DNA of 63,973 nucleotides, filler included, from a bacterium (GTDB lineage: Bacteria > JALSQH01): assembly GCA_026985515.1 (NCBI GenBank). It is 9 parts of 9 records of this genome, joined end to end, with 100 filler letters (N's around TTAATTAATTAA, not from the genome) between each part and the next. Parts side by side here need not be neighbours in the genome. Positions count along the whole stretch, not along the records: positions 28,746 to 42,848 come from JALSQH010000100.1; 8 more parts are not named here. One strand, given 5' to 3'. Positions 41,900 through 42,726 of the stretch are shown here, one piece after another (positions within the stretch are counted from its first letter, which is position 1; every line of letters starts with the position of its first letter). Position numbers and translations under genes: made by a program. The notes under the pieces are model-generated. The model was given only the letters and a program-made list of their open reading frames with translations, made no database searches and was not told where the DNA came from.

Positions 41900-42280
41900 T
41901 TACTTGACTGTGATCTTACCGGTTGAGGAATTGTAAACAAAGCTCTTAGTACCGAGCTTGTGATATGCAATTCCGGACCAGGTCTGTCCACCTGTATCAG
42001 CTGTTGCGTTGATGGTTACATTCTTTGAGCACTTGGCACCCAGGTCTGTTCTGTTTGGAGTTCCACCCAGTGTACAGGAGAAGTCAACATACACCTGGTT
42101 GTCTGCATAGTAGGCTTCCTCAGCACTTACCAGGTTCCTCAGGTCGCTCTTGGCTGTGGAGTCGTAGGCTTTCTTTCTGTAGGATGAGAACTGAGGGATG
42201 GCTATTGCTGCCAGAATACCAATGATTGCAACAACCACGAGTAACTCAACCAGCGTGAAACCTTTTGCACCCTTCTTCAT
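41900..42280 (-). CDS. pilA: Type IVa major pilin
   Basis: [26 protein letters not shown]; strong SD AGGAGGT; sigma54 promoter. Confidence 0.93.
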   Translation of the reverse strand: [126 protein letters not shown]

Positions 42281-42318
42281 TGTTTCACCTCCTTTCTATT
42301 TTATTTTCAACTTTTTCA

Positions 42319-42334
42319 TGCACATCCTGTACCA
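42319..42334 (-). promoter_or_regulatory. Sigma54 (-24/-12) promoter of pilA
   Basis: TGGTACAGGATGTGCA = GG-N10-GC. Confidence 0.75.
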
Positions 42335-42364
42335 TTTTGAATACCATGCTGCCTGTATAAAATG

Positions 42365-42410
42365 TGACAAAAATTGTCAGTGAAAGTGCCTGATGTGTCG
42401 AAAATTGTCA
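42365..42410. promoter_or_regulatory. Tandem palindromes, candidate enhancer-binding-protein (PilR-like) sites
   Basis: TGACA-N5-TGTCA (42365-42379) and TGTCG-N5-TGTCA (42396-42410), 31 bp apart, upstream of the sigma54 site. Confidence 0.6.
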
Positions 42411-42726
42411 TTTCTCCCTTATTCTGCCTACTGTTGAATCAAAAATATATGTTGTGTTTCCCCTCAGGTGGTATGAACTTGCGCTCCAGGCATCTCCCGT
42501 GGTGTTTACTGAAGCCTGAATGGTAACCTGAGAGGAGCAGATGAAACTCATATTTGTTCCCTGAGAAACATTTCCATCCTGACAGAAGTAGCTGTGGTAG
42601 GTCTGATATCCGGCGTAGTAAGCCTCTTCAACATTGACTAAATTTCTCAGGTTGTCAAGGGCAACAGAGTTGTAGGAATAGACCTTATACCTCTGGTAAG
42701 CAGGAATAACAATTGCTGATAAAATA
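42408..42726 (-). pseudogene. Second type IV pilin paralog lacking its N-terminus; not in ORF track
   Basis: [39 protein letters not shown]...YHLRGNTTYIFDSTVGRIREK*; gapless alignment to PilA; no start codon, in-frame TAA upstream. Confidence 0.85.

Follow-up and report, generated by a model that had tools for sequence, protein, structure and literature searches.

A pilin gene followed by a TMEM260-family glycosyltransferase gene suggests a pilin O-glycosylation module in a bacterial draft genome

We analysed a 63,973-nucleotide stretch of the bacterial draft assembly GCA_026985515.1 (GTDB lineage JALSQH01), referred to here as the window, in which the type IV pilin gene pilA heads a same-strand run of genes that also encodes two GT-C glycosyltransferases, a GT2 glycosyltransferase and an ABC transporter. 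Our reading, inferred partly by analogy with characterised systems and given a probability of roughly 0.55, is that we see here the major-pilin locus of a type IV pilus, equipped with its own module for periplasmic protein O-glycosylation, and we hold with equal confidence the more general proposal that bacterial homologues of TMEM260 work as dedicated O-glycosyltransferases of pilins, in a pilA-GT-C-GT2 cassette that is conserved in several phyla. The gene content, family memberships, conserved catalytic residues and conserved gene order described below are direct observations, and judging from the neighbouring genes the pilin is probably glycosylated. An earlier note on this DNA had also proposed glycosylated pili, but with the sugars linked to asparagine, and that linkage finds no support: none of the 62 open reading frames (ORFs; 17 + 45) in this 64-kb window of a partial genome has an STT3 Pfam domain, neither GT-C carries the WWDxG motif, and the GT-C beside pilA belongs to the TMEM260 family of O-mannosyltransferases.

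The pilA gene (positions 41900..42280, on the minus strand like every other feature of its contig given below) is intact and encodes a type IVa-like major pilin, 126 amino acids long. It carries the N_methyl motif (PF07963 at 2.6e-9; TIGR02532 with 34.4 bits, the cut-off being 16.3) and the features by which a type IV pilin is recognised, namely a leader ending in Gly, then Phe1, Glu5 and a hydrophobic N-terminal helix, and its C-terminal head holds two Cys. The next gene on the same strand starts 46 nt after the pilA stop codon and encodes a GT-C glycosyltransferase of 685 amino acids (39797..41854) that matches the TMEM260-like family PF11028 with 92.3 bits (cut-off 24.2) and has C-terminal TPR Pfam matches at residues 565-658. 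With a profile of 21 homologues, human TMEM260 (PDB entry 9rql) is matched across profile positions 12-486 with an E-value of 1.2e-56; with the single sequence the E-value is 2.7e-17. In the alignments, residues D23, H38 and D383 fall opposite human D52, H67 and D441; according to the available text of 10.64898/2026.03.17.711096, D52 and H67 of the human enzyme bind the donor, D441 serves as catalytic base in activating the Thr hydroxyl of the acceptor, and the TPR domain grips an extended acceptor peptide. An AlphaFold2 (AF2) model of the 685-residue protein (pLDDT 76) predicts a transmembrane core, an alpha/beta domain and a TPR domain in the same order as in human TMEM260, with strands at residues 378-487 followed by helical repeats at 519-676. 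The likeness to the human enzyme, an O-mannosyltransferase for IPT domains, thus covers Pfam family, domain order and the equivalents of D52, H67 and D441, but equivalents of R264 and Y267 are not clearly conserved in a pairwise alignment, and the protein here is bacterial, with pilin instead of IPT domains as its presumed substrate and an undecaprenyl-phosphate-linked sugar as its presumed donor.

The run encodes two further glycosyltransferases. The second GT-C (37511..39064, 517 amino acids) is PMT_2/ArnT-like: 24 of 26 aligned homologues match PF13231 (PMT_2), and its AF2 model (pLDDT 90.7) has ArnT as its best fold match in the PDB, with a TM-score of 0.59. The GT2 protein (34018..34977, 319 amino acids) matches PF00535 at 2.4e-27 and looks ArnC/GtrB-like, in that the NCBIfam families nearest to it are polyprenyl-phosphate sugar synthases (AglJ, PpgS, dolichyl-P-hexose transferase, PgfS and ArnC, each scoring far below its cut-off), its only relative of solved structure is ArnC (E = 5e-6), and its sequence has two hydrophobic C-terminal stretches, predicted to be helices. 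Between these two genes lie those for an ABC transporter, a DrrA/GldA-like ATPase (35725..36666) and an ABC-2 type permease (34980..35831). In the pathway that we propose, the GT2 would load a monosaccharide onto polyprenyl phosphate at the cytoplasmic face of the membrane, and the lipid-linked sugar would then be flipped, for which the ABC transporter is a candidate. On the periplasmic side the TMEM260-family GT-C would hold the pilin by its TPR domain and move the sugar to Ser/Thr hydroxyls of the S/T-rich pilin head (26-28% S+T), with a further sugar perhaps being added or extended by the PMT_2-like GT-C. A GT2 and a GT-C in one cluster recall the three-component systems of a GtrB-like GT2, a flippase and a GT-C (PMC11127046, in the part of that article available to us), with the differences that an ABC-2 transporter is present here and no GtrA-type flippase is recognised, and that the acceptor here would be a protein.

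Is this arrangement peculiar to the window? A scan of species-representative genomes with a profile of the TMEM260-family GT-C gave 79 loci, all of them 24-39% identical. Upstream sequence of 500 nt or more is available for 73 loci; 43 of these have a same-strand prepilin gene that ends within 400 nt of the GT-C, and in 14 of those 43 a second pilin lies 400-1600 nt further upstream. A GT2 homologue is found no more than 3 kb downstream of the GT-C in 37 of 71 assessable loci, and the 64 loci that can be assessed on both sides divide into 28 with pilin and GT2, 10 with pilin only, 6 with GT2 only and 20 with neither. Judged by record titles, the loci include Nitrospinota, Nitrospirota, Thermodesulfobacteriota, 'Deltaproteobacteria' and Zetaproteobacteria; Elusimicrobia, Ignavibacteria and others account for most of the loci that lack a pilin. 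The GT2 of related loci is 55-64% identical to the window GT2 across phyla (again by record title), far above the roughly 25-41% of the GT-C, which suggests a much tighter constraint on the sugar-donor enzyme than on the transferase. In loci L001-L042 and others the GT2 follows the GT-C match by about 100-400 nt. The GT-C and PMT_2-like protein of the nearest relatives come from contigs of one length, 27,680 nt, which points to the same arrangement there.

A GT-C glycosyltransferase encoded beside a pilin gene is already known. In Pseudomonas aeruginosa, tfpW lies immediately downstream of pilA, and its product, a GT-C of 646 amino acids with 11 predicted transmembrane helices and a periplasmic C-terminal TPR domain, is needed for O-glycosylation of pilin Ser/Thr (10.1101/2020.04.19.049825, available portion). 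TfpW, the pilin O-arabinofuranosyltransferase of group IV strains, resembles the window protein in its gene position after pilA, in being a polytopic GT-C with TPR and in size (646 versus 685 amino acids); it differs in that its loop-1 DDX is absent here, where loop 1 reads WRDTPEF, in that its YX6PFX7P motif, and likewise YX6PX5P, is unmatched here, and in that it is accompanied by decaprenyl-P-arabinose genes where the window has a GtrB/ArnC-like GT2. Because the DDX and YX6PFX7P motifs are absent, the 685-residue protein, compared with TfpW by description and motifs, would be its functional analogue and not a member of its family. A TMEM260-family enzyme in a pilin role with a GtrB/ArnC-like GT2, in a multi-phylum cassette, was not found in the literature searched, nor was any link of TMEM260/DUF2723 to a pilin, and the accessible part of a 2023 paper on TMEM260 names the bacterial relatives only as 'distant homologs in bacteria' (PMC10214176). 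The locus offers a concrete, testable substrate for these bacterial homologues of the human enzyme, and a conserved trio of pilin, TMEM260-like GT-C and GT2 would make it simple, with only three genes, to study how this GT-C family recognises acceptors. By analogy with P. aeruginosa, in which pilus glycosylation is reported to protect from pilus-specific phages (10.1101/150227, as far as the text was available), a phage-shield role of pilin glycosylation is plausible, and the same trio would let pilus glycosylation be tested as phage protection in environmental bacteria.

Several points weigh against an O-glycosylation module. The proposal rests on sequence and on gene context at the locus, and adjacency of genes does not prove that one product acts on the other. 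At the locus no dedicated flippase of the GtrA type was recognised, no function or substrate of a bacterial TMEM260 homologue was found in the literature searched, and 30 of the 73 loci above have no adjacent pilin. In addition, when the model of the 685-residue GT-C was compared with the PDB by Foldseek, STT3/PglB structures came first (E = 2e-5 to 5e-4, TM-scores 0.35-0.44), and 9rql was absent from these matches though present in the PDB sequence search. We considered this ranking as a sign of N-glycosylation and rejected it: the TM-scores are low, the true relative by sequence, 9rql, turns up in the sequence search only, and STT3/PglB/AglB structures are matched from rank 4 by the PMT_2-like GT-C too, which matches ArnT best. 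The STT3/PglB fold likeness of the model appears to be a generic GT-C resemblance. Read alone the fold result misleads, the oligosaccharyltransferases standing first since 9rql is missing among the fold matches.

The pilin-less loci also bear on the main rival explanation, in which the pilin is not glycosylated at all, the GT-Cs, GT2 and ABC transporter serve another periplasmic or surface substrate (for example another pilus protein, a lipid or a polysaccharide) and so accompany pil genes with no action on the pilin, and the Asn-x-Ser/Thr (N-x-S/T) sequons discussed below are due to chance or structure. An ABC-2 transporter with a GT2 would suit polysaccharide export as well, and pilGHI-type ABC genes and exopolysaccharide genes adjoin pilA in Myxococcus and Geobacter. 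Nevertheless, the tight same-strand spacing of pilin and GT-C recurs in loci titled Nitrospinota, Nitrospirota, Thermodesulfobacteriota and Zetaproteobacteria, the characterised member of the family is, in the source cited above and to the extent that it was available, a protein O-mannosyltransferase whose TPR domain binds polypeptide, and TfpW, as described in its available text, provides a precedent. We think it rather unlikely that the enzymes serve another substrate and leave the pilin unmodified.

The asparagine-linked proposal started from the sequons in the heads of PilA and of a second pilin-like frame immediately upstream of pilA (42408..42740, called the upstream copy here), and the counts on which it was built are exact. 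From the first Cys onward both heads are 58 amino acids long and align without gaps, with 20/58 residues identical. All four Asn of the PilA head are in sequons (NRT, NVT, NAT and NSS), as are all four of the copy (NVS, NMS, NTT and NTT), and at the PilA sequon positions the copy reads QGT, QVT, QAS and DST, so that the sequon Asn of PilA are indeed Q, Q, Q and D there. That no sequon is shared is true as a count but uninformative, because four plus four sites placed at random would fail to overlap with P = 0.74. Composition-preserving shuffles give p = 0.002 for the PilA head and p = 0.004 for that of the copy, and with both regions after the EEAYY motif taken together there are 8 sequons versus 2.2 expected, a number that none of 5000 shuffles reached; the head region used in these tests was chosen after the fact. 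For the whole proteins the values are p = 0.006 for PilA (rank 1 of the 62 window ORFs) and p = 0.047 for the copy (rank 3), neither of which survives correction for 62 tests. The second strongest excess belongs to an ORF at 63596-63970 (minus strand, 124 amino acids, running off the window end), in which 3 of 5 Asn are in sequons versus 0.6 expected (p = 0.014) and for which no Pfam match was found at E ≤ 1e-5.

The sequon excess over shuffled sequences that holds for the window heads is absent or marginal in their relatives. Of 120 PilA homologues we analysed 92, the other 28 being left out as the helix-end motif failed to match; these have 109 sequons versus 90 expected (1.21x), and the reversed control S/T-x-N gives 1.27x. 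The 43 GT-C-adjacent pilins of the related loci, whose heads are S/T-rich (up to 43% S+T), have 51 sequons among 166 Asn versus 47.2 expected, and of the two nearest relatives the one at 87% identity has 1/1 and the one at 84% has 1/4 of its Asn in sequons. The family alignment was also read site by site. In the NVT column G (56) and N (46) alternate, and the S/T at +2 is kept in 51 of 73 non-Asn sequences; in the NSS column D (46) is commoner than N (32); and in the NAT column S/T stands at +2 in 69 of 112 non-Asn sequences. Three of the four PilA sequons therefore fall on family-wide structural motifs in which the hydroxyl residue is kept regardless of Asn.

The 12 closest relatives of the two window proteins, for which the excess is modest (19 of 47 Asn in sequons versus 12.1 expected, p = 0.014, uncorrected for shared ancestry), draw 9 of their 19 sequons from two conserved positions, [KS]NVT and GN[IT]T; GN[TI]T is present in all 4 members of the clade of the upstream copy. 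Their heads show [NST]-x-[NST] at 1.29x and [NST]-x-x-[NST] at 0.70x, a signature of i/i+2 periodicity, which is the pattern expected for exposed beta-strand faces and must be allowed for in any sequon statistic on pilin heads. Strong depletion of N-x-x-S/T (3 versus 12 expected), beside mild enrichment of N-x-S/T, is seen in the heads of P0002-P0010 and P0200-P0202. We tried i/i+2 periodicity as the full cause of the excess, and it succeeds only in part. The two window heads show N-x-S/T at 3.63x, with [ST]-x-[ST] at 0.63x and [NST]-x-[NST] at 1.33x (p = 0.07), so that periodicity leaves part of their excess unexplained. Moreover, the 12 closest relatives show no enrichment of Q-x-S/T, D-x-S/T or G-x-S/T, and the NMS and first NTT of the copy stand in columns where S/T at +2 is rare (3/117 and 8/43). 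An unexplained residue of sequon excess thus remains in the small clade of the window pilins. The N-x-S/T density is nonetheless most likely a by-product of S/T-rich, beta-strand-rich heads with i/i+2 polar alternation and of the family-wide [N/G]-V-T and [N/D]-S-x motifs, and these sites are probably not N-glycosylation acceptors.

In the asparagine-linked reading, these Asn would be N-glycosylated in the periplasm by a relaxed-sequon oligosaccharyltransferase of the PglB/AglB type, encoded elsewhere in the genome. The sequon counts of the two heads, the ranks of PilA and the copy among the window ORFs, the modest excess in the closest relatives and the GN[TI]T site kept in the copy's clade all favour such a reading. 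A classical bacterial N-oligosaccharyltransferase requires D/E at position -2, and only 1 of the 8 sequons has it. Relatives of 84-87% identity do not keep the sequons, no enrichment is seen in the 43 syntenic pilins or, beyond controls, in the 92 homologues, and the STT3-family search of the window ORFs reported above was negative for these 64 kb of the genome. Neither WWD nor WW[DN]xG occurs in the 685-residue GT-C, and the 517-residue GT-C has only a WWN at residue 217, in mid-protein. The PglB/AglB/STT3 N-oligosaccharyltransferases and the N-glycosylated archaeal pilins are comparable to this locus in the GT-C fold (Foldseek TM-score about 0.4) and in having an N-x-S/T-rich candidate acceptor, but the enzyme here has no STT3 Pfam match and no WWDxG, ends in a different C-terminal domain and belongs to the TMEM260 family. 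No N-glycosylated bacterial type IV pilin was found in the literature searched, as far as its text was available. N-glycosylation of these pilins is accordingly improbable in our estimate, and still more so is its extended form, in which minimal sites would be modified by an unlinked relaxed oligosaccharyltransferase or by the TMEM260-family GT-C itself (a non-STT3 route) and the tandem pilins would carry different glycan maps. N-glycosylated bacterial pili would be remarkable if true, and the evidence here does not carry that claim.

The upstream copy raises a separate question. The earlier note had described two pilin paralogs, and the homology is real: the copy is 39% identical to PilA over the common part (38/98), its best local matches are PilA-type pilins, and its head and what remains of helix 1 are homologous to pilins. 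The gene is, however, 5'-truncated. Its open frame (42740..42408) runs for 110 codons with no internal stop, but an in-frame TAA precedes it and there is no ATG, GTG or TTG before Met64, so that it has no start codon in the expected place and lacks the leader peptide, Gly-1/Phe1/Glu5 and the first ~20 residues, and it has no N_methyl match. A database search with the copy gave three full-length relatives, the closest of which (P0200) is 84% identical and 124 amino acids long, and it is from these that we conclude that the first ~20 codons are missing. No prepilin N-terminus was found in the three frames of the 108 nt between the break and the contig end (42741..42848, a sequence unrelated to pilins), and pilA is the sole prepilin N-terminus in the window, a search of which ruled out that the missing 5' end lies in another frame of 42700-42848 or elsewhere. 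A mobile-element repeat at the contig end was also considered; the last 35 nt have no second copy in the window. We read the copy as what is left of a second, divergent pilin gene in tandem, either a pseudogene without its 5' end or a gene whose 5' end dropped out during assembly. As assembled it can be neither made nor built into a pilus, and the idea that paralogs present alternative glycan shields finds no support.

Two-pilin arrangements, broken in the window, are common: the 14 tandem-pilin loci mentioned above, in each of which both pilins have a prepilin motif, are L006, L010, L015, L018, L023, L025, L029, L031, L034, L037, L038, L039, L042 and L052. The PilA-type and copy-type pilins of the nearest relatives occur on contigs of equal size (2248 and 8857 nt), suggesting that both pilins are intact there and stand in tandem. 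These intact versions raise the possibility, independent of glycosylation, that the truncation is an assembly artefact and that the real genome has two intact tandem pilins. In this draft assembly 108 nt separate the break from the end of its contig, and repeats such as the conserved 5' end of pilin genes break assemblies. Opposed to this, the contig does not end at the break, since those 108 nt are unrelated to pilins, contain an in-frame stop and encode no prepilin N-terminus, and we give the artefact some weight as a tentative explanation. The copy could also be a silent cassette like pilS of Neisseria, donating head sequence that differs in its sequon or S/T pattern to pilA by gene conversion for antigenic or glycan variation. 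As in the pilE/pilS system, a 5'-truncated, promoterless copy is found near an expressed pilin gene: it lacks both a promoter-proximal start and the 5' part of the coding sequence, and has kept 110 codons open in its place immediately upstream of the gene that is expressed. Here, however, only one copy is seen, intact versions exist in relatives and in the 14 loci with two prepilin-motif pilins upstream of the GT-C, protein identity is 39%, and the two genes have no conserved DNA blocks in common (196 of 421 pilA-region bases are in invariant columns). Because the two DNA sequences lack any long identical block, we rate a pilS-like cassette the least probable of all the readings considered.

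The window is not one chromosomal piece and comprises nine contigs of the draft genome in descending size (14.4 kb to 2.8 kb or more), divided by eight linkers, each 44 N + TTAATTAATTAA + 44 N, at 14422-14521, 28646-28745, 42849-42948, 46576-46675, 50283-50382, 53924-54023, 57499-57598 and 61058-61157. Gene adjacency across a linker is meaningless because the linkers separate distinct contigs; both pilin frames are on the contig at 28746-42848, and the linker that starts at 42849 directly follows the 108 nt beyond the truncated copy. The remaining genes of the pilA run encode a predicted membrane protein of 198 amino acids for which no family was found (39219..39815), a 283-residue protein with a weak TPR match (36663..37514) and the prepilin peptidase PilD (Peptidase_A24; 33030..33848).

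In the 127-nt gap upstream of pilA there is a sigma-70-like promoter match (42373..42401), which is a weak consensus match only, 1 being found where shuffles give 1.5 expected. A loose sigma-54 promoter pattern (TGGC-N8-TGC) was uninformative, with 1 match in the whole window versus 3.6 expected and none upstream of pilA. Directly after the pilA stop codon and before the GT-C start lies a terminator-like GC-rich hairpin with a T-run (41872..41889), which suggests high pilA expression with read-through into the downstream genes; the hairpin may set a high ratio of pilin to enzyme expression. Elsewhere in the window, DUF4388-domain proteins are encoded at 44737-45435 and 47288-48940, on separate small contigs and perhaps unrelated to the pilins; one of the two has a weak sigma-70 region 4 match and the other has TPR.

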